Source of the DNA: Patescibacteria group bacterium
GTDB taxonomy: Bacteria; Patescibacteriota; Patescibacteriia; UBA9570
Assembly: GCA_041665365.1 (NCBI GenBank)
Contig: JBAYIY010000007.1
Location: 11,103-75,102, forward strand
Direction: 5' to 3'
Length of the DNA stretch: 64,000 bases
Below the pieces are notes generated by a model. The model made no database searches. It was given only the letters and a program-made list of their open reading frames with translations, and was not told the origin of the DNA. Positions 4,603-48,543 of the stretch are shown here, in pieces; the stretch's first letter is position 1, and each line of letters starts with the position of its first letter. Made by a program: the position numbers and the translations under genes.

Positions 4603-4713
4603 AAAATCACGCAGCAAGAATTTTCTGTAATTCCGTATCGAGCCGATCCAAACAGAGAATTAAATACGTATTAATTACCTAGCTACTATTCGAGATGTAC
4701 TGCTATGCAGGGG
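4603..4713. repeat. copy 2 of the direct repeat, abutting the 3' end of tRNA-Trp
   Basis: Aligned by eye to 3148-3266. Its last bases (tgcaggg) overlap the tRNA acceptor 3' strand. Confidence 0.85.
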
Positions 4714-4778
4714 GTGCAGGAATCGAACCCGCCCTAATGGTTTTGGAGACCACTGTACTACCGATATACGAACCCCCT
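4708..4778 (-). tRNA. trnW: tRNA-Trp (anticodon CCA)
   Basis: The reverse complement folds as a cloverleaf. Acceptor AGGGGGT/ACCCCCT, anticodon stem GTGGT/ACCAT, loop CTCCAAA, T-arm GCGGG-TTCGATT-CCTGC. CCA is not encoded. Confidence 0.85.
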
Positions 4779-33208: not shown

Positions 33209-33303
33209 CGTATAGACATGCAATCATGTAGAGACGTGCCATCATGTAGAGACGTGCCATCATGTAGAGACGTGCCGGCGGCACGTCTCTACATGATGGC
33301 ACG
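33209..33303. repeat. family-2 palindromic repeat cluster (GTAGAGACGTGCC type)
   Basis: About 3.5 tandem 18-bp units catgtagagacgtgccat run into a 21-bp-arm palindrome, gccatcatgtagagacgtgcc-ggc-ggcacgtctctacatgatggc. Confidence 0.85.
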
Positions 33304-33450: not shown

Positions 33451-33966
33451 ATGCCAAAAAATCGAGCGCAAAAAGCGCAATTGCTTGAGGCAATAACGGG
33501 CGCACTCAATCATAAAGGGGTCGTGTTTTTTTCCCATACTGGGTTAAAAGTCACAGATCTAGAAGCTTTGCGCAAAGACATGCGCAAAGAAAACAGTACT
33601 GTGATGGTGGCTAAACGCAACTTATTATTACTCGCTTTAAAACAGCAAGGCATAGCAGTTGACGCAGCACAGTTGGATGGAGCCGTCGCCGTCGCCGTGG
33701 GTGATGACGAAATCACTCCAGCCAAAGTGGTAGCCACATTCAAGAAGAAACACGAAGCAGTAGCTTTCTTCGGAGGGTTAATGGAACATCGTTTCATGAC
33801 CGCCGCTGAAGTGCAACAGCTTTCCACCTTACCAGGTAAGCAAGAGTTATTAGCCAAATTAGTTGGTTCACTCCAGTCGCCCATGACTGGTATGGTCAAC
33901 GTCTTGGTCGGTAATGTCCGCGGCCTGGTTACAGCATTGGATGCGATTCGTGCCCAAAAAGTGTAG
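33451..33966 (+). CDS. rplJ: 50S ribosomal protein L10
   Basis: 171 aa. L10-like sequence immediately upstream of L7/L12. Confidence 0.9.
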   Translation: MPKNRAQKAQLLEAITGALNHKGVVFFSHTGLKVTDLEALRKDMRKENSTVMVAKRNLLLLALKQQGIAVDAAQLDGAVAVAVGDDEITPAKVVATFKKKHEAVAFFGGLMEHRFMTAAEVQQLSTLPGKQELLAKLVGSLQSPMTGMVNVLVGNVRGLVTALDAIRAQKV

Positions 33967-34016
33967 AGACATGCCATGGCATGACTCAACAAATTATTAA
34001 ATAATCATATATCTTT

Positions 34017-39087: not shown

Positions 39088-39951
39088 ATGAATTATCTTC
39101 GCATTGTCTTTGCCCATTGGATTGCCATATTGTTCATCACCACTGCGGCCGCGGCGCTTACGGTCGGGTTATCTTTTATTCCTACCCAGATGTATTCATC
39201 GGAGGTGTCTTTATTGATTGTGCAGAAACAAGCGCAGTATGTTGACCCTTACACATCACAGAAAGCTGCCGAAAAGTTGGGGCAAAATTTAGTGAATGTG
39301 ATCGACTCATTTGATTTTTTAAACCGCGTTTTGGCCACCGGCACAGTCTCACCCGATTTATTTAGTGCTTCCACTGATGCCCGTAAAAAACAATGGGAAG
39401 CCATGACTGATGCGGAAATGTTTAGTAACACTGGTGTGTTGCATATCACCGCTTATGCCCCCACCGCCGGTGCCGCTGAAGATGTGGTGATGGCCATGAG
39501 TACAGTGCTCACTACTAATTCATCAGATTATCATGGTGGGGGAGATACCGTTGAGATTAAGCTCATCGATGGGCCGGTCACATCGGATAGTCCGGTAAAA
39601 CCAAACATTCCATTAAATGGTGCGATTGCGGCTGTGTTAGGCCTAATCGCCTCGGCGGCTGTATTTATTGTTTATGAAGAAACCAAACGGTTACAAGATG
39701 AACAAGCCAAGGTGAGGTATGTGCAAACCGTCACGCCTGGTAGAGACGTGCCGCCGGCACGTCTCTACGATGATCGGATTGAAAAATCTGATCAAATCAT
39801 AGAGCCCCAATATAAGGTATTAGATGAATACCCCAAACAGCCATATGTGTATGGTGCGGAATTGAAGGATGAAGAACCTCGCCAAGGGGCGGGTGAACCT
39901 CGCCAAGGGGCGGGTGAACCGGTGTCGATGCAGGATCATTTGAAAAAATAG
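39088..39951 (+). CDS. Wzz-like polysaccharide chain-length determinant with repeat-derived C-terminal tail
   Basis: TM1 at the N-terminus followed by Y.SEV.LLI, and TM2 (GAIAAVLGLIASAAVFIV) near residue 190. The tail contains a family-2 palindrome and a 21-bp tandem. Confidence 0.55.
   Translation: MNYLRIVFAHWIAILFITTAAAALTVGLSFIPTQMYSSEVSLLIVQKQAQYVDPYTSQKAAEKLGQNLVNVIDSFDFLNRVLATGTVSPDLFSASTDARKKQWEAMTDAEMFSNTGVLHITAYAPTAGAAEDVVMAMSTVLTTNSSDYHGGGDTVEIKLIDGPVTSDSPVKPNIPLNGAIAAVLGLIASAAVFIVYEETKRLQDEQAKVRYVQTVTPGRDVPPARLYDDRIEKSDQIIEPQYKVLDEYPKQPYVYGAELKDEEPRQGAGEPRQGAGEPVSMQDHLKK
39740..39768. repeat. family-2 palindrome inside the coding sequence
   Basis: gtagagacgtgcc-gcc-ggcacgtctctac, translated as GRDVPPARLY. 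Confidence 0.85.
39874..39920. repeat. 21-bp tandem repeat (2.2 copies)
   Basis: gaacctcgccaaggggcgggt x2 plus gaacc, translated as EPRQGAG EPRQGAG EP. Confidence 0.9.
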
Positions 39952-39978
39952 GGGTTTTCCCCAGTAATTTAGGTAAAA

Positions 39979-40008
39979 AAACGAGTTCAAATAAATGGAC
40001 TCGTTTTA
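39979..40008 (+). terminator. hairpin terminator after the Wzz-like gene
   Basis: Stem acgagt/actcgt with a 12-nt loop, followed by TTTTAGTATT. Confidence 0.45.
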
Positions 40009-40011
40009 GTA

Positions 40012-40040
40012 TTGACAAAAAGTAGAAATAATGCTAAATT
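40012..40040 (+). promoter_or_regulatory. sigma70-like promoter opening the high-GC cassette array
   Basis: TTGACA (40012), 17 nt spacer, TAAATT (40035). Confidence 0.5.
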
Positions 40041-40064
40041 GTTCAGTTATTTTTGGGGACATAT

Positions 40065-40213
40065 GTACCCCCTAGCCCCCTTGCAGGGGGTAAAAGATAA
40101 CAATAAACTTATGCACCTTTTCACTATGAACAGTTAGTACGAACGGGGATACCATGAGTGTACCCCCAACCCTCATCTCTTATCCCCTTGAAAGGGGGAC
40201 AGAGGGGGTAAAT
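40065..40213. repeat. family-1 palindromic element, split/expanded copy
   Basis: gtaccccc-tag-cccccttgcaggggg ... about 70 nt insert ... gtaccccc-aac...ccccttgaaaggggg-acaga-gggggtaaa. Confidence 0.75.
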
Positions 40214-40760
40214 TCCGGAGTGGGTAAACACCAGTTAGTCTCACACGAATCAGATGAGAACACCATCAAAGTGAAGGTGTTGCCATGTGGTTCGTCTGTA
40301 TAGCCGGTGATCAGCAATGATCGCTGGCTGTCATGAATCACTCAACCCGAAAGGGTTAAGCACATTTACAATCTACTTTCCTACTTCGACTCGTTTCACT
40401 CGCTCAGTATAAATTTATTGAGCATGTAAGCTTGTCGAATGATCATCGGTAGCGATATACAGACCTCATCAATATACATACTTCTTTGAGTACACCACCC
40501 TAGCCCTCCTATTCTAGGAGGGAATAAGAATAAATTTTCTTACTCCCTTCCTACAATAGGAAGGGCCGGGGATGGTGTATTCCGGAGAGGGATACGTATC
40601 CGGAGAGGTCTCCATATCGCTACCGATGAAACCAACAATATCGGAGCTCGGTTCCCCAACGGGGAGACATTCGTCGCGGCAATTTCGCCGTGATGTATGT
40701 CCACCCGGACGTGAACCGGGACCGATCGACTTCACTCGACTACATGGAGCTACGAAAACA
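40204..40760 (+). promoter_or_regulatory. conserved structured 5' leader, copy A
   Basis: A 91-nt block (40204-40294) is identical to 42545-42635. Block 40443-40625 is near-identical to 42712-42917. Long-range stem cggtagcgatatacagacctc / gaggtctccatatcgctaccg. Confidence 0.6.
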
Positions 40761-42236
40761 ATGACGTTCAAGAACATCCTCGCGATCTTCACGTTCATCT
40801 TCGCCATTCTCGCCCCGGCGACCGTCGCCCAGGCCCAGGAGAAGTGGGAGGATCCAAAAGTGGGTCCGTTCACTCTCGGGTACTGGTCGAAGCTCGATGC
40901 CGGCGCGACCAGTGTCGACGCCGCGGCGGCCGGGATCATGAAGAACTTCAAGGAGTGTGAGAGCAAGTACGGCCAGGGTGGGTGCTACATCCAGTTCGAA
41001 TCATCTACTGACATCAACCGCTGGGACAACACCAAGAATGGCAAGGACGACGCATTGCACGGTGGGCTCGGAGAGGGACGCACCGCGGTCCTCAAGGACG
41101 CGGTGTTTTCTCGATCCGCAAGGATCAAGGAATACTCGGTCACCGACTACCCCCACCACGGTGCGAAAGATGGATGGCGGTACTCCTGGGCGACGATCAT
41201 GCCCAAGGAAGGTGCCTCCGCGATGCCGAAGGTGTCGGCCGACCCCAACAAGAGGTGGAGCTTCCTCACGGAAGTGCTCCTCCGCCAGACCGATAACCTC
41301 TGTCCCACGATGGTGCGGGCGGACGCGGTCACGCGAACCTACACCCTGCAGGGTCAAACCTGCGGGTGCAGCACGTTCGATGCAGTGCCCAGCACCCGCC
41401 AGTTGGAGGTCAGGAACGACCTCACCTGGTTGGGAAAGGTCGTCGCGGACCGCTCGAAGTGGTCCGACGCGAAGACTTTGACCTGGACGGAAGTCCGGGC
41501 CGCTCTCGAGGAGGGCACCGAGTCCCGCGTCATCGAAGTCGACGCGCTCGGCGATCCGTCCTCCACGCCCGACGGTCTGTCCGTTGAGTTCGTGGAGTCG
41601 GAGACCCTGCTCCGGGTGCAGTTCCCGGACAGGTGCTCGCCGATCCTCGACGCCGCGAAGGCAGAGGCCGACGCCAAGGCGCAAGCCAAGGCTCAGGCCG
41701 ACGCCGACGCCCGCGAGTCCGCAAGGCTCGCGGCGTACAACACCGACTTCATGGTCGGTGGGTCGGTCGCGGGTACGGGGACGTTCATCCCCAAGTACAG
41801 CCCCTTCAACCCGGGCAGGGGTTTCGACCTCGCCGGGCACGTCGAGGGCGGTGCGGTGATCGGCGGCGGGTACGGCGCGTGGGCTTTCGGGCTCGGCGTC
41901 GGCCCGTCGTGGGACCCGAACTGCCTGACCCCCGGCCAGGTTGACCTCGAGGCCTTCACCGGCCCGTGGCTCAACAGGCAGGGGAAGGTCGGGTTCTCCG
42001 CCTTCCTGAACGGATCTGCGGGCTTCACCATGTACAACGGTGAAGTCCTCACCCCGCGGTACCGCCTGGGTCTCAACCTGGGCGTGCCCGTGCAGGTGGA
42101 GCGTGAGCTCTACCTGGTTCCCCAGATCGGCCCCGTGGTCGACTGGGTGAGCGGGCAGGTGCAGGCGACCGGCGGCTTCGCGATCACCGAGCGAGTCGGG
42201 ATCGCGGGTGGTCTGCGGATCATCAAGACGTTCTGA
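40761..42236 (+). CDS. high-GC exported protein with C-terminal beta-barrel-like domain (foreign-type)
   Basis: ORF track gives 40572..42236. The true start is likely the ATG at 40761, after GGAG, because it begins the signal peptide MTFKNILAIFTFIFAILAPATVAQA. Strong GC3 bias. Gly/aromatic-rich last ~170 aa, ending in Phe. Confidence 0.7.
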   Translation: MTFKNILAIFTFIFAILAPATVAQAQEKWEDPKVGPFTLGYWSKLDAGATSVDAAAAGIMKNFKECESKYGQGGCYIQFESSTDINRWDNTKNGKDDALHGGLGEGRTAVLKDAVFSRSARIKEYSVTDYPHHGAKDGWRYSWATIMPKEGASAMPKVSADPNKRWSFLTEVLLRQTDNLCPTMVRADAVTRTYTLQGQTCGCSTFDAVPSTRQLEVRNDLTWLGKVVADRSKWSDAKTLTWTEVRAALEEGTESRVIEVDALGDPSSTPDGLSVEFVESETLLRVQFPDRCSPILDAAKAEADAKAQAKAQADADARESARLAAYNTDFMVGGSVAGTGTFIPKYSPFNPGRGFDLAGHVEGGAVIGGGYGAWAFGLGVGPSWDPNCLTPGQVDLEAFTGPWLNRQGKVGFSAFLNGSAGFTMYNGEVLTPRYRLGLNLGVPVQVERELYLVPQIGPVVDWVSGQVQATGGFAITERVGIAGGLRIIKTF

Positions 42237-42429
42237 TCTGAGTAGGAAAGTAGGTTAGGGTGAGGGGGTATAGGTTGTGTCGCAAGTCTGCGAACAATCT
42301 GTACCTCCTCCCCACCTACACAAATATGAATAAGGGATAATGTCTCTCGAGGTAGTGACCTCGGTAAACATGGTTCCTGATTCAACTGAATAAGGAATCG
42401 GTCTTTAAAAATAATCTATGGTTAAAACC

Positions 42430-42553
42430 TTTACCCCCTCTGTCCCCCTCTCGCCTCTGCGAAGCCGCTACGGCGGAGCACGGTGCAGGGGGATAAGAAA
42501 AGAAGTTTTAAAAATATCTTCTCATAGCCCCCTGCAAGGGGGTTGGGGGTAAA
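42430..42553. repeat. family-1 palindromic element (inverted orientation) with a GC-rich insert in one hairpin loop
   Basis: tttaccccc-tctgt-ccccct[38-nt insert]caggggg-ataagaaaag...-ccccctgcaaggggg-tt-gggggtaaa. Confidence 0.8.
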
Positions 42554-43053
42554 TTCCGGAGTGGGTAAACACCAGTTAGTCTCACACGAATCAGATGAGA
42601 ACACCATCAAAGTGAAGGTGTTGCCATGTGGTTCGAAGAGTCATAGTCGATCAGCAATGATCGCTTGTGACCACGAAACACAATTTGTTCTTTAAAATCT
42701 TCTGCTAAGAATCATCGGTAGCGATATACAGACCTCATCAAGCATACACACTTCTTTGAGTACACCACCCTAGCCCCCCGCCTTGCCGGCGTGGCAGGTC
42801 CTATTCTAGGAGGGAATAAGAATAAATTTTCTTACTCCCTTCCTACAATAGGAAGGGCCGGGGATGGTGTATTCCGGAGAGGGATACGTATCCGGAGAGG
42901 TCTCCATATCGCTACCGGTGAAAACAATACCGGCGTGCTCGGTTCCCAGAATGGGAAAGATGCGGTTGTGGGAATGTTCCCATGACATGTGTTCTACCCT
43001 GTTCAAAAGAACCGGGACCGATCGACTACACAATTTCGACTGGAGCTACGACA
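42545..43053 (+). promoter_or_regulatory. conserved structured 5' leader, copy B
   Basis: See copy A. Same block order, with the middle segment shortened and a 22-nt GC-rich insert at about 42786. Confidence 0.6.
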
Positions 43054-43839
43054 ATGACGCTCAAAAACATCGTGATCTCGCTCGCGCTCGTCGTCGGTTG
43101 CAAGATGGGCCCGGTGCAGGAATGTGACTCGGACTCGGACTGCTTCGAAACCAACACCAACTCCGATACCGACACCGACGCGGACACGGACACGGACGCC
43201 GACGCTGATACGGACACGGACTCCGACACCGATACCACCGAAACCGACGTGGACAACGACGGCGACGGGTACACCGTGGACGGCGGGGACTGCAACGACG
43301 CCAACGCCAGCGTCCACCCGGGCGCGACCGAGTACTGCAACGGCGTCGACGACGACTGCAACGGGTCGATCGACGACAATGACACCGACGGGGACGGGTA
43401 CGTCTCCGACGACTGCACGTCATATGACGGAGTCGCCGGCCTCCCCGGTGGTGATTGCGCGGATTCGATCGGGACGACGGCGTCCTGGTCGAACAGCGAT
43501 ATCCACCCGGGGCAGTTGGAAATGTACGACTGGATCGACACTAACTGCGACGGCACCGCCGACGATGGATGTAGTATGTTGTGCGACACCGACGGCGACG
43601 GATACGAGAATTTCGAACAGGGCAGCGGGCCCGAGTTCGAGTGCGTGGACGCGTCGTTCGTGGCGGATCAGTCCGCCTCGAGCAGCCCGTTCGATACGAC
43701 GATCTCGTGGACGTATGCCTCCAGCGGAGTGGTTTACTCCGGTGTGAACGCAACGTGCGAAATGACGGCGGCCCAGCAGGTCGATCCGTCAACCTGGAGG
43801 ACGATCACGTCCATCCAGGCCGAGATGGCCACCCGCTAA
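43054..43839 (+). CDS. high-GC lipoprotein with (D-T)n tract and MopE-type Cys-rich motifs (foreign-type)
   Basis: Start at the ATG at 43054 after GGAG. Lipobox LALVVGC. DTDTDADTDTDADADTDTDSDTDT tract. DGDGYTVDGGDCNDANASVHPGATEYCNGVDDDCNGSIDD. Confidence 0.7.
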   Translation: MTLKNIVISLALVVGCKMGPVQECDSDSDCFETNTNSDTDTDADTDTDADADTDTDSDTDTTETDVDNDGDGYTVDGGDCNDANASVHPGATEYCNGVDDDCNGSIDDNDTDGDGYVSDDCTSYDGVAGLPGGDCADSIGTTASWSNSDIHPGQLEMYDWIDTNCDGTADDGCSMLCDTDGDGYENFEQGSGPEFECVDASFVADQSASSSPFDTTISWTYASSGVVYSGVNATCEMTAAQQVDPSTWRTITSIQAEMATR

Positions 43840-44107
43840 AGGTGGTTATCTCAACCGGAGATTGGTAGTTCTCCGGGCACAGACATAAGTGCAAACAAAA
43901 AACCAAAATCTTCTAGCAGAAGATAGATCAGCTCGGGAGGTGGCATGAGTAGAGCACACAAACGCTCCTCGCCACCTCCCACCTTCGCTCTAAGAAGAGC
44001 TTCGGCGGGCAAGCCCACCTAATAATGTATCCAGAATCAAATAGTATTATGGATAGATTAATGGGAAATAGTAATTAACAAATAGGAGTTAGGAAATAAA
44101 TAGGGGG

Positions 44108-44134
44108 TTGACGTGACCTTTTTTTTGATATAAT
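44108..44134 (+). promoter_or_regulatory. promoter with extended -10, leaderless layout
   Basis: TTGACG, 15 nt spacer containing TGa, TATAAT (44129), then 8 nt to the ATG at 44143. Confidence 0.45.
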
Positions 44135-44142
44135 ATCGATTT

Positions 44143-44391
44143 ATGACTACGGCTAAATTAGTAAAAACAGTAAATTCATGTCCAAAGACAAGTTTGAATG
44201 ACAAACCGGTTGTTATGATACCCATGGAACTATGGGAAACGCTTCAGGTACAATTACTAACAAGACCAGTCCCGACTTATTATTTGCAAGGAAAAGAGGC
44301 AAAACAATTAGATCATCTTGTTCAACAAGGTATAAACGCAGCTCGATCGAGAAAAACTAGAGTAATAACTTCACTTGCAGAGTTAGATTAG
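44143..44391 (+). CDS. putative type II antitoxin (Phd/YefM- or RelB-like)
   Basis: 82 aa. KPVVMIPMELWETLQ resembles the antitoxin N-domain. A toxin-like remnant follows 4 nt downstream. Confidence 0.4.
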   Translation: MTTAKLVKTVNSCPKTSLNDKPVVMIPMELWETLQVQLLTRPVPTYYLQGKEAKQLDHLVQQGINAARSRKTRVITSLAELD

Positions 44392-44394
44392 CCC

Positions 44395-44460
44395 ATGAAC
44401 ATACAGGTCACAGATCGTTTCGTTAAGCAATATAAAAAATTTATCGATGAGGTTAGATGA
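44395..44460 (+). pseudogene. truncated RelE/ParE-like toxin remnant (21 codons)
   Basis: MNIQVTDRFVKQYKKFIDEVR-stop resembles the N-terminus of RelE/ParE toxins (..I.ft.rF.K.lKKl). Confidence 0.35.
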
Positions 44461-44506
44461 TGATTATGGAAAAATAAAAATACGAAGTCACACTGAAAAA
44501 GATATT

Positions 44507-44532
44507 AAAATGTGCTACCAGCACATTTTTTT
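44507..44532. terminator. hairpin terminator, possibly bidirectional
   Basis: aaaatgtgc-tacca-gcacatttt followed by a T-run. Lies between the TA remnant and the 3' end of the ligase gene. Confidence 0.6.
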
Positions 44533-44562
44533 GTATTCAGCGTTATCAGTTCTTTCAGCGCC

Positions 44563-45966
44563 TCAGCGATCCATTTGGCCGTGTGGCCTTGTCTCCACAA
44601 CAATCATGGCTAGCACTGTCATATATGTCCACATCACGGCGGTACCTTGGAGTAGATTATCACTGACACTAATTGTTAGCGCGGCAATAATTAAGGCCAT
44701 ACCAAACAGAGCATAGTGTTTTTGCCAGCTGTCTTCATGGTGGCTAACATAATTCCAGAATAGTGTTACTAACAAACCTAGCCAGAAACCAAGATACAGA
44801 GCCAAACCAACGAAGCCGGTTTCAATGGCTAAACGGAGATAATCATTATGGGCTTCAGGGTCATCAAACAAACCGATATCGCCCTGTTGTCTTAAAGTCA
44901 CAAAGTTGCCTAAACCGTAACCGAGAAGGGGAGAATTGAGGGTTTGCGGTGCCATAGTTTGAAACACCTGTAAGCGCCAATCAATCGAATCGGCTTCCTC
45001 ATCACGACTGGTTAGGCGATGTAAGAGGTTTATTTTATTTAGATCATAATTAAAAGTATTGATGGTAACAGTGTTGATTACTTGCCACAACAAAAATGCA
45101 CCGACTAAGACAGTAGCAATAGTGAGTAATTGTTTACGATAATATTTTAGGCCAATTAATATTTGAATGACGACAAAACCAATCCAGGCACCTCGAGTAT
45201 AGGTGAATAATAACATCACCAACCCCAAGCCGATTAGCCATGGATATATTAAAGACCGTTGTTCAGGTTTTTTAGTCAGTTGGGTGATTAATAATAAATT
45301 TATGATACATACCAAATAAAACCCAAACACATTCGGGTGACCAAAGGTGCCATAGACGCGGTTATCTAAACCACCAAATGATAGCCCGGTGGCGGTAATA
45401 AGCTGCACCAAGCCAGCGGCTAATGGTATCACCAGAGCCACGGCTAGTACCGGTGTTAGCCGCGTGATACTGTGTGGTTGTGTGGTAGCCACGTGGTAGG
45501 CAATTATAAAAATAATCACAATCGAACTGAGGCGGAGCCATTCACTCAATGAGATAAATGTATCCAAGCTGACACCCAAGGTGGCGGCTCCCCAGATTAA
45601 AACTCCAATCAGCCAGCCCAATTGGGTAGTGGCACTAAGTTCAACCCGTTCTCTAAGTAGAATTACTAAGAACCACACAATCACCAATATTGCCACCATG
45701 GAAGTTAAATTTATAGTGACTGATCGAATGGTTAAAAGGCCATAGCCAGAAAATATATCAATGATCGGGCGAAAGATGAGTAGGGCATATAAACCATACT
45801 CGGTTTTTAATAAAAAAATTGGGGCGATAATTACAATGGCCGCTAAGCCAATGGCGGATGTAGCAGAAATATCTCCAAATACTATCCAGCCTAATACACT
45901 TAACACTGTTAGGCTGTATATAATTAAAAGTATGGTGTTGAATTTTGAAAGTGGGGAGAAAGACAT
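44563..45966 (-). CDS. O-antigen ligase-like (Wzy_C/RfaL family) membrane protein
   Basis: 467 aa, about 11 TM. YTRGAWIGF and EAHNDYLRLAIETGFVG motifs. Confidence 0.75.
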   Translation of the reverse strand: MSFSPLSKFNTILLIIYSLTVLSVLGWIVFGDISATSAIGLAAIVIIAPIFLLKTEYGLYALLIFRPIIDIFSGYGLLTIRSVTINLTSMVAILVIVWFLVILLRERVELSATTQLGWLIGVLIWGAATLGVSLDTFISLSEWLRLSSIVIIFIIAYHVATTQPHSITRLTPVLAVALVIPLAAGLVQLITATGLSFGGLDNRVYGTFGHPNVFGFYLVCIINLLLITQLTKKPEQRSLIYPWLIGLGLVMLLFTYTRGAWIGFVVIQILIGLKYYRKQLLTIATVLVGAFLLWQVINTVTINTFNYDLNKINLLHRLTSRDEEADSIDWRLQVFQTMAPQTLNSPLLGYGLGNFVTLRQQGDIGLFDDPEAHNDYLRLAIETGFVGLALYLGFWLGLLVTLFWNYVSHHEDSWQKHYALFGMALIIAALTISVSDNLLQGTAVMWTYMTVLAMIVVETRPHGQMDR

Positions 45967-45987
45967 TGAGATTATTATAACACATCA

Positions 45988-46025
45988 ATCCAGTAGAGAC
46001 ATGCCATGGCATGTCTCTACTGGAT
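45988..46025. repeat. perfect 38-bp palindrome (family 2 variant)
   Basis: atccagtagagacatgcca|tggcatgtctctactggat. Confidence 0.9.
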
Positions 46026-46029
46026 TGAT

Positions 46030-46092
46030 AAAAAAAAGAGGCCCCGGGAGATTGTCATGTACATGCGTAGTACAGACAACCTCAACCGGGGC
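46030..46092 (-). terminator. long-hairpin rho-independent terminator of the third high-GC gene
   Basis: Minus strand: gccccgg...gttgtc-tgtac...gtaca-tgacaat...ccggggc followed by T8. Confidence 0.6.
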
Positions 46093-46103
46093 GTCCAAAT
46101 TCT

Positions 46104-47159
46104 TTACTTGACGGCGACCGTAGGGTTCGCCACCACGAGGATACTCCCCATGATGGTCTCCACGTCGCCGGCGTAATTCCCGCCGGCATTGTGGAGGTCG
46201 ATCCCCTCGGCCTTCACCACCTCTTCCCGGACGCCGTCAGCGACCGGGAAAGCCACCTCGCCCTCGCCGTACGAATCGTCGACGACGAAGAAGAAATGAT
46301 CCCGGGCGACTTCACAAAGTCGTTTGCCCGGGAGAGTGGTCAGACTCGAACACTTGAACCCCTCCGGCAGCACGAGGATGCTGCCCATCGTGAGTTCCGG
46401 AATCGTTCCGGTGTACTCACTCAGGGCGTAGCTATCCCCGGAGCCGGCGAGGGGCCCGGTGAAGCAATCGTAGCCCGACGAGGCGCCATCGCCGCAAGAG
46501 AGGTGGGTATGATCCACCTCAATGGGCAACGGCCGCCCGATCGGGCCAGTCTGAGTCAATTCTCCCACACGCACCGCCTGGGTCGCGGTCGTGTGGGAGC
46601 CACCGTGAGCCCCAACCCAGCGGGTGGAGTCATATCCCTTCTCACACGCGCTGAACGGCGCGGAGTCGGGGAGGACCCACCCGGACGAGCCGTCGAAGTA
46701 GCTGATTTCAACAACGGTACCGTCAGGCTGCAGGGCCGTGACGATCCCATTGTTGTACAGATCATCCGACGTGTCCCTCATGGCGAAGGAATCGGGGAGG
46801 TAAACCTCCCTCGTTCTCCTGCCATCGGGGGCTGTCACGGTCACCGGTGACGAGTCTTTCGACCCGTCGAGGACAAAAACCGGGTCGATGTCGACCCAGT
46901 CAAGTCCTCCGTCCCAGTCCGTCTCGACCGTCCGGGCGATCTTGCGATCAACCTGGAGGTCACGGATCTGGAACGGCACCGAGGCCCAGCACTCGGCCGG
47001 GGTCTCGGTGTCGGTGTCCGCGTCAGTGTCAGAGTCGGTGTCCGTCTCCGCTTCGGGGCAGGTCGCCCCGGGCAGAGACGGATCACAATTGAGCTCTCCA
47101 CACCCCGCCACCAAAATGGTGACCAGGACGAGGAGCAGCTCGATGATGTAGCGCAACAT
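46104..47159 (-). CDS. high-GC lipoprotein with (D-T/S)n tract (foreign-type)
   Basis: 351 aa. Lipobox LVAGC. ETDTDSDTDADTDTE tract. Strong GC3 bias. AAGGAG lies 6 nt before the ATG. Confidence 0.7.
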   Translation of the reverse strand: MLRYIIELLLVLVTILVAGCGELNCDPSLPGATCPEAETDTDSDTDADTDTETPAECWASVPFQIRDLQVDRKIARTVETDWDGGLDWVDIDPVFVLDGSKDSSPVTVTAPDGRRTREVYLPDSFAMRDTSDDLYNNGIVTALQPDGTVVEISYFDGSSGWVLPDSAPFSACEKGYDSTRWVGAHGGSHTTATQAVRVGELTQTGPIGRPLPIEVDHTHLSCGDGASSGYDCFTGPLAGSGDSYALSEYTGTIPELTMGSILVLPEGFKCSSLTTLPGKRLCEVARDHFFFVVDDSYGEGEVAFPVADGVREEVVKAEGIDLHNAGGNYAGDVETIMGSILVVANPTVAVK

Positions 47160-47272
47160 GACTGCTCCTTACCCCTGGTCGGGGTGGGGGGACTGTTTGT
47201 TCGTCAAGTAATATGAATTTGGAAAGAACTAGTGTCGCTTACAGACAAAATTTGCCCATAAACGAACCGCAC

Positions 47273-47301
47273 AATATACCCTATTTTTGACGTTTTGTCA
47301 A
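47273..47301 (-). promoter_or_regulatory. near-consensus sigma70 promoter driving the third high-GC gene
   Basis: Minus strand: TTGACA, 17 nt spacer, TATATT, then a leader of about 110 nt. Confidence 0.55.
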
Positions 47302-47322
47302 GGGTTCTGCTACAATAAGCCC

Positions 47323-48543
47323 GTGAATATTCTGCAAATCAATAAATTCTTCTATCGGCGGCGGGGGGCAGAAACATACTTATTTGATCTCTCTGAATTA
47401 TTAAGAAGTAAAGGTCATAATGTCGCCGAGTTTGCTATGGTTCATCCAGACAACGAACCATCACCGTGGAGTGAGTATTTTGTGTCCGAAGTTGATTATA
47501 GCCAAAAAACTTTAGCGGGAAATATTAAAGCGGCAGCGAGAATGTTTTGGAGTACAGAAGCGCAAAGAAAACTGGATGCGTTGTTGGATGTGTTTAAACC
47601 AGATGTGGCACACATTCATAATATCTATCATCAAATTAGTCCATCTATTTTAGTCACCTTAAAGAAACGGGGGATACCGATAGTATTAACCCTGCATGAT
47701 TACAAATTAATTTGTCCGAATTACGAAATGTTTACGGGCAACCAAGTGTGCATGCGCTGTAAAGGGCGTAAATATTATAATGCGGTGTTGCATAAATGTA
47801 TTAAAGGTTCCGTGGGTATGAGTGCACTGGTTATGTTTGAAATGTATCTGCATAAAATGATGCAAGTGTATGAACATGAGGTTGATTGTTTTATATCACC
47901 ATCACAGTTTTTAAAAAAACAAATGTTGGATTGGGGTGAGCAAGTGAAGCGCATCGAGGTTATACCAAATTTTGTGCGTGCACCCATCACGGACGGTGTG
48001 ATGGACGGGTCGGATGCATCCCGTGTAAACGATGTCTTATACGCAGGTGCTCTTTCCCGCATCAAAGGGGTCGATTTAATCCTTGACAATTTCCGGAAAA
48101 ATCGGTACTCTGGCCGGTTACTATTAGCTGGGTCTGGGCCAATGGAGGCCGAAATAAAAGCTGAGAGTAACGAAAATATTGTGTATTTAGGACAGCTTAG
48201 TAAACAGGAATTAGCCAATCGGGTTAAAGAATGCCGGGCGGTGATTGTGCCATCGCGGTATCATGACAACTTTCCCTATGCAGTGCTTGAAGCTTTTGCA
48301 GCCGGGAAACCGGTGATTGCCAGTCACCGGGGTGGTATGCCAGAATTGGTGCAGCCGCGTCACACTGGCTGGTTATTTGAACCAACTAAACCAGACAGTT
48401 TAACAGCGGCTTTAACCGAAATGTTTAAACGAGACGATTTAGTAAAACAGTTTGGTGAGGCGGCCTGTCAAGTAGCCAAAACACACAACCCAGAAAAACA
48501 CTATGAAACGATTATTTCTCTTTATCAGTCTCTGCTTAGCTAG
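47323..48543 (+). CDS. GT4-family glycosyltransferase
   Basis: ORF track starts at the TTG at 47287. The GTG at 47323 gives the typical N-terminus (V)NILQINKFFY..GGAE. C-terminal EAFAAGKPVIAS..GG.PELV. Confidence 0.8.
   Translation: MNILQINKFFYRRRGAETYLFDLSELLRSKGHNVAEFAMVHPDNEPSPWSEYFVSEVDYSQKTLAGNIKAAARMFWSTEAQRKLDALLDVFKPDVAHIHNIYHQISPSILVTLKKRGIPIVLTLHDYKLICPNYEMFTGNQVCMRCKGRKYYNAVLHKCIKGSVGMSALVMFEMYLHKMMQVYEHEVDCFISPSQFLKKQMLDWGEQVKRIEVIPNFVRAPITDGVMDGSDASRVNDVLYAGALSRIKGVDLILDNFRKNRYSGRLLLAGSGPMEAEIKAESNENIVYLGQLSKQELANRVKECRAVIVPSRYHDNFPYAVLEAFAAGKPVIASHRGGMPELVQPRHTGWLFEPTKPDSLTAALTEMFKRDDLVKQFGEAACQVAKTHNPEKHYETIISLYQSLLS

Follow-up and report, generated by a model that had tools for sequence, protein, structure and literature searches.

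Atypical GC content and codon usage are standard evidence for recent horizontal transfer, and according to amelioration theory such signals of atypical composition fade. The gene analysed here lies on the minus strand of a 64-kb stretch of Patescibacteria DNA (the window, taken at its full length of 64,000 nucleotides) and resembles the genes treated in the amelioration model of Lawrence & Ochman (1997) in its atypical codon usage and GC relative to the resident genome. It differs from them in being found in all relatives at one slot, with native signals and no mobility genes, and it has not been ameliorated despite synonymous saturation, which is the opposite of the prediction.

Consecutive stem-loops through a coding sequence are a feature of GORS viruses, and neither there nor here are the pairings well conserved in position among relatives. 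By a GORS-like measure, the gene folds far more stably over its coding sequence (CDS) than shuffles that preserve composition. The excess reaches 30–45% here and +5 to +21% for the orthologues, as against 7–9% in HCV, 15% in SARS-CoV-2 and a recorded maximum of ∼23–24% (PMC7642675), values whose direct comparison with ours is limited by differences in windows and shuffling scheme. The GORS cases are viral genomes, not a bacterial chromosomal gene with its mRNA as here, and their proposed benefit, shielding from innate sensing, cannot be carried over directly. Stem-loops at the 5′ terminus stabilize mRNAs in the Escherichia coli ompA leader and in Bacillus subtilis leaders of the aprE/ermC type. 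Here too, a stable hairpin is located a few nucleotides from the predicted transcript start, in 8/8 orthologues, and precedes the gene for an abundant-type envelope protein.

The protein shares with Lgt/LspA lipoproteins bearing low-complexity tethers a short charged n-region, a hydrophobic h-region, the V-A-G-C motif and a disordered acidic tether leading to a globular domain. This layout is found in 13/13 full-length members of a family that, by comparison, is without a Pfam or NCBIfam model. The predicted fold bears a weak likeness to MltA-type lytic transglycosylases and further glycan-active proteins with a double-psi beta-barrel (DPBB), namely the 3D domain, expansins and GH45. A literature search for Patescibacteria genes that are GC-rich or deviate in composition gave no relevant result.

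A GC-rich gene with inverted codon usage

The GC content of the lipoprotein gene is 0.60–0.63, compared with ∼0.41 for the window. Its GC3 of 0.79 contrasts with 0.26–0.47 in all 47 other ORFs of the window, a comparison that leaves out two other GC-rich islands (GC3 0.81–0.82). The three GC-rich genes lie within 7 kb, and a Cys-rich exported protein is encoded by each of them, all three products being alike in the style of their N-termini. The GC-rich zone coincides with the transcript body, that is, the proximal leader, the CDS and the 3′ untranslated region (UTR); its boundaries are sharp and the adjoining genes are AT-rich. The first and second codon positions are GC-enriched as well, and the UTRs moderately so, with the maximal excess in the CDS. 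The features of the locus are collected in Table 1.

Table 1. Features of the lipoprotein gene and its immediate surroundings (positions in the window).
Feature	Position	Strand	Basis or remark
Sigma-70-type promoter	47273..47301	−	Best match in 9-kb scan, 11/12 positions
−35 box TTGACA; 17-nt spacer; −10 box TATATT	47301-47296 (−35); 47278-47273 (−10)	−	
Stem-loop, 14 bp, at predicted mRNA 5′ end	47235..47265	−	∼8 nt past −10 box
Rest of leader	47160..47234	−	Small C4/G4 hairpin (∼47171-47185) abuts SD
SD AAGGAG	47165-47170	−	5 nt before ATG
Whole CDS, 351 codons + stop	46104..47159	−	GC3 0.79, A3 0.05, hairpin-dense
Signal peptide + lipobox V17-A18-G19-C20	47100..47159	−	Translation; lipobox codons 47100-47111
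Acidic low-complexity tether EAETDTDSDTDADTDTE, aa 36-52	47004..47054	−	Sequence
Conserved ∼295-aa extracytoplasmic domain, aa 56-351	46107..46994	−	Sequence
Short 3′ UTR + intrinsic terminator	46030..46103	−	Long GCCCCGG...CCGGGGC hairpin + U8 (46030-46037)
Perfect 46-nt palindrome	45984..46029		Inverted repeat; copy of genome-native REP-like repeat, core GTAGAGACRTGCC

The codon usage of the CDS is the inverse of that of the resident genome, and its GC-ending codons, rare in the genome, differ from the preference of ribosomal-protein genes. Translational optimisation for high expression was rejected, since rplJ and rplL favour AAA, GAA and TTA. Codon usage pooled over the orthologues and set against 100 native high-GC ORFs was indistinguishable from generic high-GC usage, and is uninformative on a donor; an argument against a GC-rich donor that had seemed sound for the three window genes vanished with this pooling.

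An earlier, sequence-only reading of this DNA had described a GC-rich minus-strand ORF in AT-rich flanks, one of three genes of like composition, and the coordinates and composition reported here bear this out. Its lipobox LVAGC reappears in our translation as V-A-G-C with Cys20, and the post-lipobox style that it likened to that of the gene at 43054 was likewise recovered, as a Cys-rich segment followed by the tether. The same reading took the gene to be wired to local expression signals. The promoter (TTGACA-17-TATATT), the SD and the terminator are all found where it had placed them; the leader, put at about 110 nt, measures ∼106 nt; and the promoter does overlap a palindrome, TTGACGTTTTGTCAA (47287-47301), common to the divergent GT4 gene.

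A predicted tethered lipoprotein of a widespread extracytoplasmic family

As judged from its sequence, the product is a lipoprotein with a predicted lipidation site at Cys20; a flexible acidic tether leads to a globular domain of ∼295 aa. The N-terminus, MLRYIIELLLVLVTILVAGC, runs into a lipobox that fits the [LVI][ASTVI][GAS]C pattern, and a Cys closes the hydrophobic N-terminus in all 13 full-length family members. Two further cysteines (Cys25 and Cys34) precede the tether and another (Cys57) follows it. In the homologues the tethers vary in length and are D/T/S-, D- or P/T-rich, and the residues invariant in the domain include H185, G186-G187-S188-H189, E214, D294 and D295. No Lgt or LspA was detected among the scanned ORFs of the window; at locus L004, Lgt (PF01790) is encoded ∼6 kb downstream of the lipoprotein gene.

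The domain represents a widespread uncharacterised extracytoplasmic family, with more than 900 cluster representatives, linked to surface-polysaccharide clusters. The lipoprotein matched no Pfam family at E ≤ 0.01 and no NCBIfam family, the family profile matched no PDB sequence, a Foldseek search of the PDB was negative, and none of the Pfam, NCBIfam and PDB sequence searches connected it with MltA or 3D-domain models. The weak resemblance of the predicted fold to MltA/DPBB glycan-cleaving enzymes, together with the carbohydrate-binding or glycan-active partner domains of distant homologues, suggests that the protein could be a glycan-processing enzyme, a proposal to which we give clearly less than an even chance. 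The substrate of such a membrane-tethered enzyme would be the cell wall or the polymer made by the cluster itself. P0161, a homologue on a native GC-rich contig, adjoins a homologous GT4 gene.

The sister GC-rich genes of the window contain a MopE-type motif (PF11617), and one of their products has an OMP-like C-terminus. GC-rich diderms, among them Myxococcota, often have MopE-type motifs and D/T-rich tethers. The idea that the transcript or gene is built to work in a GC-rich diderm host fits the lipobox and the OMP-like C-terminus of the sister gene product; we regard it as very improbable.

A conserved gene at a conserved slot

The gene belongs to a Wzy-dependent surface-polysaccharide cluster conserved in a clade of Patescibacteria. 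The arrangement in which GT4 diverges from the lipoprotein gene, itself followed by Wzy, recurs in at least nine other independently assembled genomes, the loci being derived from different samples and assemblers. A homologue occupies the equivalent slot at L003, L004, L005/6, L007, L008, L091 and L092, and at L093 it stands beside Wzy. These loci also have homologous promoters, leader starts and terminators. NCBI names a Patescibacteria metagenome-assembled genome as the source of the identical protein. An exhaustive profile search yielded only 17 matches below 1e-30, and each of the ten homologues with readable context sits in the Patescibacteria slot behind the same promoter. The nearest relative in a GC-rich genome, P0161, is 29% identical and is not a lipoprotein.

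The sequence-only reading had viewed the gene as a discrete one-gene island, of the same donor type as the two other GC-rich genes and difficult to account for by a single chimeric join. The last of these claims stands. A Logan assembly of SRR6484324, made independently, matches 11,160 nt with 100% identity and spans both compositional junctions, its contig stopping inside the perfect 46-nt palindrome. Chimerism or contamination was thus rejected, with independent assemblies identical and synteny kept across species. The island itself did not survive: every related locus recovered has a homologue in the equivalent slot, and the proposed comparison with empty sites found none among nine related loci, all of which carry the gene. 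A search of genome contigs for an empty site returned the L003 contig alone, again, and a metagenome scan with the GT4 alignment retrieved distant loci only (35–42% identity), all without the lipoprotein gene and not alignable as empty sites. Several of these distant loci bear other GC-rich Cys-rich genes beside the cluster. The common donor type also fell away, as no donor was found for the lipoprotein gene and pooled codon usage does not inform on one. What held was the expectation that no low-GC orthologue would occupy this position, the orthologues being GC-rich too; the island reading fails all the same.

Signatures of mobility were searched for in the gene tables within ±10 kb, with no integrase or transposase and no flanking direct repeats detected, and no target duplication was seen at the lipoprotein gene. 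The sole tRNA gene of the window is at 4707-4778. An Rfam search of 39500-48000 produced no credible family, the best matches being miRNA or CRISPR-DR noise (E ≥ 0.02). An integron-like cassette was discarded, since the locus gene tables hold no integrase and the 3′ palindrome is a dispersed REP-like repeat, whose core has 12 matches in the window versus 1.4 expected. A phage origin was rejected as well, no relative having been found in IMG/VR. Taken together, these results indicate that the gene is almost certainly native and conserved, neither an insert nor a chimera.

The trees of GT4, GHL15 and the lipoprotein share their deep topology, with L092 and L091 as outgroups (100% support). Within the inner clade they disagree. 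GHL15 groups (L003,L005) at 100%, and the lipoprotein tree has (L003,L004) at 70% and ((L003,L004),window) at 88%; L005 is displaced there to a long branch. A derived A-type motif (C..SGFDC) is scattered over the flank tree, and L003 and L005 have near-identical terminators and similar 3′ UTRs, yet their proteins are ∼44% identical. The disagreement between the trees shows recombination at work on the lipoprotein gene.

GC-richness outlasts synonymous divergence

The orthologues have GC3 values of 0.55–0.91, versus 0.21–0.51 in flanking genes (difference +0.17 to +0.56), and some of the carrier genomes are as AT-rich as GC3 0.24. The lowest of the orthologue values is that of L004 (0.55). At four-fold sites, third-base identity between orthologues is close to the expectation from composition only, meaning that these sites are randomised, and GC4 stays at 0.7–0.88 in most pairs. 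Synonymous sites are therefore saturated yet GC-rich, and the composition has been maintained rather than inherited from a recent donor. A gene-specific force very probably maintains GC. The gene may still have an ancient foreign origin.

A conserved promoter and terminal hairpins

TTGACA-N17-(TG)TATATT is kept upstream of the orthologue in 8/8 loci. The stem-loop at the predicted 5′ end has a folding energy of −14.6 kcal/mol (z −5.3), and a stem-loop is present at the equivalent leader position in 8/8 orthologues (−6.8 to −17.8 kcal/mol), six of the eight being more stable than all 200 shuffles. The stem sequences differ, and RNAalifold returned no consensus on the alignment because the stems are unequal in length. 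With pairs not conserved in position and no RNAalifold consensus, formal covariation support is therefore lacking, and the conservation that we claim for the 5′ stem-loop is one of position alone. GC climbs to ∼0.52 in the final 60 nt of the leader; orthologous leaders are variable past the first ∼90 nt, with total lengths of 106–340 nt or more.

At the other end, the terminator hairpin with its U8 (46092-46030), the long hairpin plus T8 of the sequence-only reading, has a folding energy of −37.5 kcal/mol (z −6.6). Terminators with its CCCCGG/CCGGGG stem are also found in L003, L005 and L008, and L007 has a CCCCGC/GCGGGG variant. Next comes the 46-nt palindrome, 18 nt ahead of the start codon of Wzy, at which the usual AT-rich host DNA sets in. 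The palindrome at the promoter supplies the divergent GT4 gene with a TTGACG-18-TACAAT promoter and is not conserved in the orthologous loci.

The coding sequence is packed with hairpins

The minimum free energy of the CDS is 30–45% below that of dinucleotide shuffles (z −17.7 to −19 for the whole CDS; −8.3 and −9.9 for two 301-nt pieces), and all 13 CDS windows are negative (z −1.95 to −5.7). Relative to synonymous-codon permutations the z-scores are −11 to −13, or −7.4 block-wise; as the permutations fold worse than the native sequence, codon choice per se does not explain the structure. The neighbouring GT4 gene has a folding z of +1.3. Excess folding as a generic trait of GC-rich coding sequences was rejected, as ten native high-GC genes and the homologue P0161 have folding ratios of 0.98–1.06. 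The median ratio of the orthologues is 1.165, compared with 1.02 in controls (Mann–Whitney p = 2e-5).

The excess is uneven among orthologues. Two of them, L005 (+5%) and L010 (+8%), do not exceed the control range despite GC3 of 0.79–0.86, and the two other GC-rich genes of L005 (GC3 0.93) reach just +7%. Structure can therefore be the sole driver only if what counts is absolute, and not relative, stability. In 6/6 genes tested, folding is better for the sense strand than for the antisense strand; the bulk of the excess is strand-symmetric, so that it may have a DNA-level cause. A conserved RNA fold within the CDS was rejected, with only 0–5% of predicted pairs common to orthologues save for the close pair L004/L010.

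Selection on the transcript and its rivals

The overall reading that we favour, with confidence just short of even, is that of a native gene whose GC-richness is kept by selection on transcript stability or structure; that this selection is the GC-maintaining force is itself a slightly more tentative proposal. Transcription would initiate at the conserved consensus promoter, and the predicted mRNA would consist of the 5′ stem-loop, a chain of GC-rich hairpins through the CDS and the strong terminator. Stem-loop, structured body and 3′ hairpin would yield a long-lived, nuclease-resistant mRNA, longevity probably being the benefit. Selection would act on the transcript for thermodynamic stability, with GC-richness as the means. 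It is rather unlikely that RNA-level selection keeps two or three mRNAs for exported envelope proteins of the clade at GC3 0.7–0.9 across deep divergence, with most copies of the lipoprotein gene packed with hairpins and the rest of the genome at GC3 0.2–0.45.

The main rival, which we consider unlikely, is an ancient acquisition kept GC-rich by GC-biased gene conversion (gBGC). The locus would be a recombination hot spot in which surface-protein alleles are swapped between strains or species, anchored in the leader and in the terminator and Wzy, with heteroduplex repair biased to G and C. The conflict between lipoprotein and flanking trees, the scattered A-type motif and the near-identical L003/L005 terminators on divergent proteins all favour it, as does the rise of GC at codon positions 1 and 2 and in the UTRs. 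It does not predict the excess of hairpins or the sense-strand bias, nor does it explain AT-rich neighbours with sharp boundaries; flank protein identities of 45–78% make homologous recombination between species unlikely today, and the gBGC effects described for bacteria seem smaller than a GC3 excess of +0.3 to +0.56. Less likely again is codon-level selection for non-optimal GC-ending codons, with RNA structure as a by-product. Such codons would slow or gate the synthesis of a Cys-rich protein that is Sec-exported and lipidated, or make its production depend on particular tRNAs. The rarity of these codons in the genome, the Cys-rich exported products of all three GC-rich genes and the peak of GC excess in the CDS agree with this view, but permutations that keep both codon usage and protein fold far worse (z −7 to −13), and GHL15, another exported protein of the cluster, has ordinary GC3.

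Repeated xenologue replacement from GC-rich bacteria, for instance the hosts of presumed epibionts, would make each copy young. Composition and pooled codon usage like those of native high-GC genomes are what it expects, the MopE-type motif of the sister genes recalls GC-rich diderms, and L004 could be an older, partly ameliorated copy. It is nevertheless improbable: all ten readable loci are the Patescibacteria slot with the same promoter, the exhaustive search gave few close matches, P0161 as the first relative found in a GC-rich genome is distant and lacks the lipoprotein character, the deep branches are congruent with flanking genes, and a foreign donor would have no plausible recombination substrate for an exact swap between AT-rich leader and terminator. 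To a recent one-gene horizontal-transfer island, or an assembly chimera, we give almost no credence. The sharp compositional jump and the presence of three such genes within 7 kb would suit it; nine other independently assembled loci with orthologues behind matching promoters and before matching terminators, the failure to find an empty site, synonymous saturation, junctions reproduced exactly by a second assembler and flanks free of integrase, transposase, tRNA and direct repeats do not.

Significance

The compositional signature conventionally attributed to recent transfer persists here in orthologues with randomised synonymous sites. If selection on the transcript, or an unusually strong local bias of gene conversion, holds GC in this way, compositional detectors of horizontal transfer will misclassify such genes systematically, and bacteria can maintain a gene-specific composition, so far discussed mainly for eukaryotic isochores and structural RNAs. 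Under RNA-level selection, such genes would parallel GORS in a bacterial, protein-coding setting, or the GC-rich rRNA of AT-rich thermophiles. If either force holds GC, ‘hard-wired’ mRNAs with long lives may serve the ultra-small, ribosome-poor cells of the CPR in making key envelope proteins.

A native lipoprotein gene in a conserved slot

ORF 46104..47159 on the minus strand encodes a 351-aa product whose N-terminus, MLRYIIELLLVLVTILVAGC, carries a V-A-G-C lipobox with Cys20, followed by two further cysteines, the tether EAETDTDSDTDADTDTE and then Cys57-Trp58. The gene starting at 43054 has the same N-terminal layout. GC content is 0.60-0.63, against 0.42 for the window. At third positions GC (GC3) reaches 0.79; 47 other window ORFs lie at 0.26-0.47 and the two neighbouring GC-rich islands at 0.81-0.82. 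The observation made in the sequence-only reading, a GC-rich lipoprotein gene in the Cys-rich, tethered style of the 43054 gene amid low-GC DNA, is therefore confirmed.

The exact protein is recorded in an 85.6-kb ENA contig and, independently, in the Logan assembly of SRR6484324; NCBI assigns it to a Patescibacteria MAG. Over 11,160 nt the Logan contig matches at 100% identity, both compositional junctions included, so the gene is not a chimeric join, an explanation that reading had also found hard to sustain. The contig stops at window position 46000, within a perfect palindrome, the kind of site at which k-mer assembly would be expected to end.

Among 5.8 billion proteins searched, only 13 other homologues were recovered (43-60% identity). 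Each full-length one is a lipoprotein combining a low-complexity tether with the shared domain of ~290 aa, and every homologue on a readable contig occupies the same slot, divergent from the glycosyltransferase gene GT4 and upstream of a Wzy-type polymerase gene; behind GT4 lie GHL15 (an exported protein of the same polysaccharide cluster), a CLIPPER-like protein and GT2. In neighbour-joining trees, for GT4 and GHL15 as for the lipoprotein, L092 and then L091 fall outside all others with 100% support. Since these deep branches agree, the gene has been inherited together with its neighbours, across divergences down to 48% GT4 identity. Neither an empty site, integrase, tRNA or target duplication nor a phage copy was found for it. 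The proposed one-gene island was thus not borne out: the related loci recovered showed no empty site, homologues on readable contigs all sitting in this slot. The lipoprotein gene is a clade-conserved native gene, neither artefact nor insert.

Two further observations concern these loci. The 158-kb L003/L009 contig CAYLOJ010000001.1 is labelled 'uncultured Gammaproteobacteria bacterium', yet is similar to and syntenic with Patescibacteria loci; its label or its binning is probably wrong. There, a stretch of N within the D/T-repeat tether truncates the annotated protein P0003. Inserted toxin-antitoxin modules separate the lipoprotein and Wzy genes, or adjoin them, in some relatives (L007 11369-12727, L091 9397-9932); they are of HicAB, CopG-like, DUF433/DUF5615 and YafQ/ParE-like types, all of ordinary low GC3.

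Searches of Pfam, NCBIfam and PDB sequences gave nothing that matched the lipoprotein. A family profile found 922 cluster representatives, 17 of them below 1e-30, and the C-terminal ~240 residues are also present in secreted proteins of several domains, alongside F5/8-type-C, PA14, beta-helix, CAP and DUF4832/4874 domains. P0161, a TM-anchored distant homologue (29% identity; L094 1797-4176), is encoded on a contig that is GC-rich by nature (GC 0.65), where a gene homologous to the window's GT4 follows ~650 nt downstream; the link between lipoprotein and GT4 is therefore older than the clade. From weak fold similarity and gene context we infer that the protein may be a membrane-tethered glycan-processing enzyme, acting either on the wall or in concert with the Wzy-dependent polysaccharide cluster.

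Expression signals and flanking repeats

The signals proposed for the gene (promoter, AAGGAG, hairpin with T run, and a palindrome common with the divergent GT4) were all found as described.

Features of the lipoprotein locus, repeats in the window and GC-rich segments at distant loci
Feature	Position	Strand	Remarks
Promoter TTGACA-17-TATATT	47301-47273	-	best sigma-70-like site in 9 kb scanned
AAGGAG	5 nt ahead of lipoprotein ATG	-	
Stem-loop at start of predicted transcript	47265-47235	-	-14.6 kcal/mol, z -5.3
Terminator hairpin + U8	46092-46030	-	-37.5 kcal/mol, z -6.6
Small palindrome TTGACGTTTTGTCAA	47287-47301		also -35 box of divergent TTGACG-18-TACAAT promoter
Perfect 46-nt palindrome	45984-46029		just past lipoprotein terminator; copy of REP-like repeat
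Dispersed REP-like palindromic repeat	33210-33292 (tandem run, 4-5 copies), 33963-33990, 39740-39768, 45984-46029		
GC 0.6+ segments	L014 7000-8618; L018 12000-13662; L032 11506-13788; L044 1-500; L058 1-900		

Between loci, the promoter TTGACA-N17-(TG)TATATT can be aligned, as can the initial ~90 nt of the leader; the small palindrome is not conserved at related loci. A stem-loop equivalent to that at the transcript start occupies the same place, with other sequence, in all eight orthologous leaders examined, and RNAalifold could not align the eight. The distantly related L004 (9878-9965) and L005 (9876-9926) leaders have an identical 11-bp stem, GTAGTCGGTTG / CAACCGACTAC, with differing loops; it follows the conserved leader start, ahead of the GC-rich part, and is missing from the leader in the window. 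At the other end, a CCCCGG/CCGGGG terminator stem is common to the window, L003, L005 and L008, with a CCCCGC/GCGGGG variant in L007, and a 3'-UTR element is common to L003, L005 and L010. On the divergent side, the GT4 mRNA would appear to be leaderless or nearly so, because its GTG start (47323) lies only 6 nt past the TACAAT -10 box (47311-47316).

The core of the REP-like repeat, GTAGAGACRTGCC, has 12 matches in the window against 1.4 expected by chance, and the repeat is native to this genome. As the palindrome past the terminator is a copy of it, the DNA adjoining the terminator on that side is ordinary host DNA.

GC is retained while synonymous sites turn over

A low-GC orthologue at this position in related genomes would have counted against the sequence-only reading; all orthologues proved GC-rich at third positions. 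Single flanking genes range from 0.21 to 0.51.

Sources of related loci with the lipoprotein gene in the slot (all but L010), and GC3 of lipoprotein and flanking genes
Locus	Source	Lipoprotein GC3	Flanking-gene mean GC3
Window		0.79	0.38
L003	GCA_964385285.1	0.78	0.45
L004	JGI 3300013121	0.55	0.38
L005 (with L006)	JGI 3300045379 and 3300045396	0.86	0.44
L007	SRR22388273	0.71	0.42
L008	GCA_054403235.1	0.83	0.41
L010 (1.5-kb contig, flanking genes not available)		0.79	
L091	SRR22387796	0.83	0.42
L092	GCA_030698395.1	0.82	0.26
L093	ERZ23496930	0.91	0.48

Third-base identity between orthologue pairs was measured at four-fold-degenerate codons of identical aligned residues. The same base was found in 0.24-0.42 of these codons, in most pairs within 0.08 of the composition-only expectation; L004-L010 (0.39 versus 0.25) and L004-L007 (0.37 versus 0.27) lie above it. 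GC at these positions nevertheless stays at 0.7-0.88 in most lineages. Synonymous sites have fully turned over between orthologues, yet remained G or C, so that inherited donor composition cannot be the explanation, and a gene-specific force must be acting on GC in each lineage.

The coding sequence is dense in predicted hairpins

The lipoprotein CDS is predicted to fold into a chain of local stem-loops. Its nt 1-301 reach -168.1 kcal/mol, where dinucleotide shuffles give -123.3 ± 5.4 (z -8.3), and 46300-46600 reaches -176.4 against -121.8 ± 5.5 (z -9.9), compared with z +1.3 for a 301-nt control piece of the adjoining GT4 gene. Across the whole CDS, 150-nt windows fold 30-34% more stably than their dinucleotide-shuffled versions (z -17.7 to -19), with negative z in 13 of 13. 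The excess persists against synonymous-codon permutations keeping protein and codon usage (z -11 to -13), also within 25-codon blocks (z -7.4).

The ratio of native to shuffled folding energy is 1.05-1.32 in ten lipoprotein orthologues (median 1.165 versus 1.02 in controls; Mann-Whitney p = 2e-5), 0.97-1.08 in AT-rich native neighbours and 0.98-1.06 in ten native high-GC genes from GC-rich genomes plus P0161; L005 (1.05) and L010 (1.08) fall inside the control range. The sense strand folds beyond the antisense in six of six genes tested, the bulk of the excess being strand-symmetric, and 0-5% of predicted pairs are common to orthologues. Like the genome-scale ordered RNA structure of RNA viruses, this structure is pervasive and energetically strong without positional conservation; folding-energy differences there are 7-9% in HCV, 15% in SARS-CoV-2 and ~23-24% at most (PMC7642675), values based on other windows and another shuffling scheme than ours.

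Other GC-rich genes

A ~570-nt upstream leader is duplicated before both other GC-rich genes of the window (40204-40780 and 42545-43071; gene starts 40761 and 43054), with 94-100% identity in the main conserved blocks and 79% in one; the coding sequences are unrelated. The promoter and leader start of the first (40012-40058) are similar to the lipoprotein gene's (70% across 47 nt). This first gene (40761-42236) encodes a cleavable-type signal peptide and a Gly-rich C-terminal region ending ...GLRIIKTF, which looks like an outer-membrane beta-barrel signature, odd in a lineage generally regarded as monoderm. Together with a MopE motif in the second gene, this OMP-like C-terminal Phe makes an ancient foreign origin of the GC-rich trio plausible.

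Upstream, an exact 21-nt tandem duplication (GAACCTCGCCAAGGGGCGGGT x2, 39874-39915) at the 3' end of a Wzz-like ORF yields the repeated peptide EPRQGAG. The true 3' end of this ORF is doubtful because a REP-like palindrome (39740-39768) lies within it as annotated.

More distant Patescibacteria loci, found with the GT4 alignment (35-42% identity), are without this lipoprotein. In several of them (L014, L018, L032, L044, L058), the same GT4-GHL15 cluster adjoins other GC 0.6+ segments, against a genomic background of GC 0.30-0.42; the phenomenon may therefore be wider than the lipoprotein's clade. In the two readable ones, L018 and L032, the segments, of GC3 up to 0.80, code for MopE-like proteins rich in Cys.

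Forces that could maintain the composition

The lipoprotein's codons include TTC at 91%, ATC at 80%, AAG at 71%, CTC plus CTG at 79%, and no TTA. Translational selection for preferred codons is ruled out by rplJ and rplL of the window, which use AAA, GAA and TTA; the converse, selection for rare codons, is unlikely. An apparent excess of AGG, TTG and GGG vanished after pooling orthologues against 100 native high-GC ORFs, so codon usage speaks neither for nor against a GC-rich donor. Repeated xenologous replacement of the gene is quite improbable, and a recent island or chimera, with both junctions crossed by a second assembly and the slot filled in relatives, barely conceivable. GC-biased gene conversion at a recombination hot spot, somewhat unlikely overall, fits the incongruence within the inner clade: flanking genes pair L003 with L005 at 100%, whereas the lipoprotein tree joins L003 and L004 with the window's copy and leaves L005 on a long branch, and a derived A-type motif is scattered across the flank tree. 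It does not, however, predict the hairpins, and to our knowledge the GC excess here seems larger than gene-conversion effects reported for bacteria.

We tentatively favour selection for a stable, structured transcript, GC-richness being the means to that end. Stem-loops at the 5' terminus, as in the ompA, aprE and ermC leaders, shield bacterial mRNAs from 5'-end-dependent decay. The lipoprotein gene's combination of a stem-loop at the transcript start, numerous hairpins along the GC-rich body and a strong terminator is suggestive of an mRNA adapted to persist. Such selection would account for the coincidence of the GC-rich zone with the transcript body, the persistence of GC despite synonymous turnover, the excess folding with its sense-strand bias, and the conserved 5' stem-loop. 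L005 and L010 weaken the case, as do the 43054 gene and L005's other GC-rich genes, all of which combine high GC3 with only marginal folding excess.

Whatever the force, the GC-rich, hairpin-dense CDS of the lipoprotein is actively maintained. Our literature searches found no description of this phenomenon, and a native coding sequence maintained in this state is unusual and open to experimental test.
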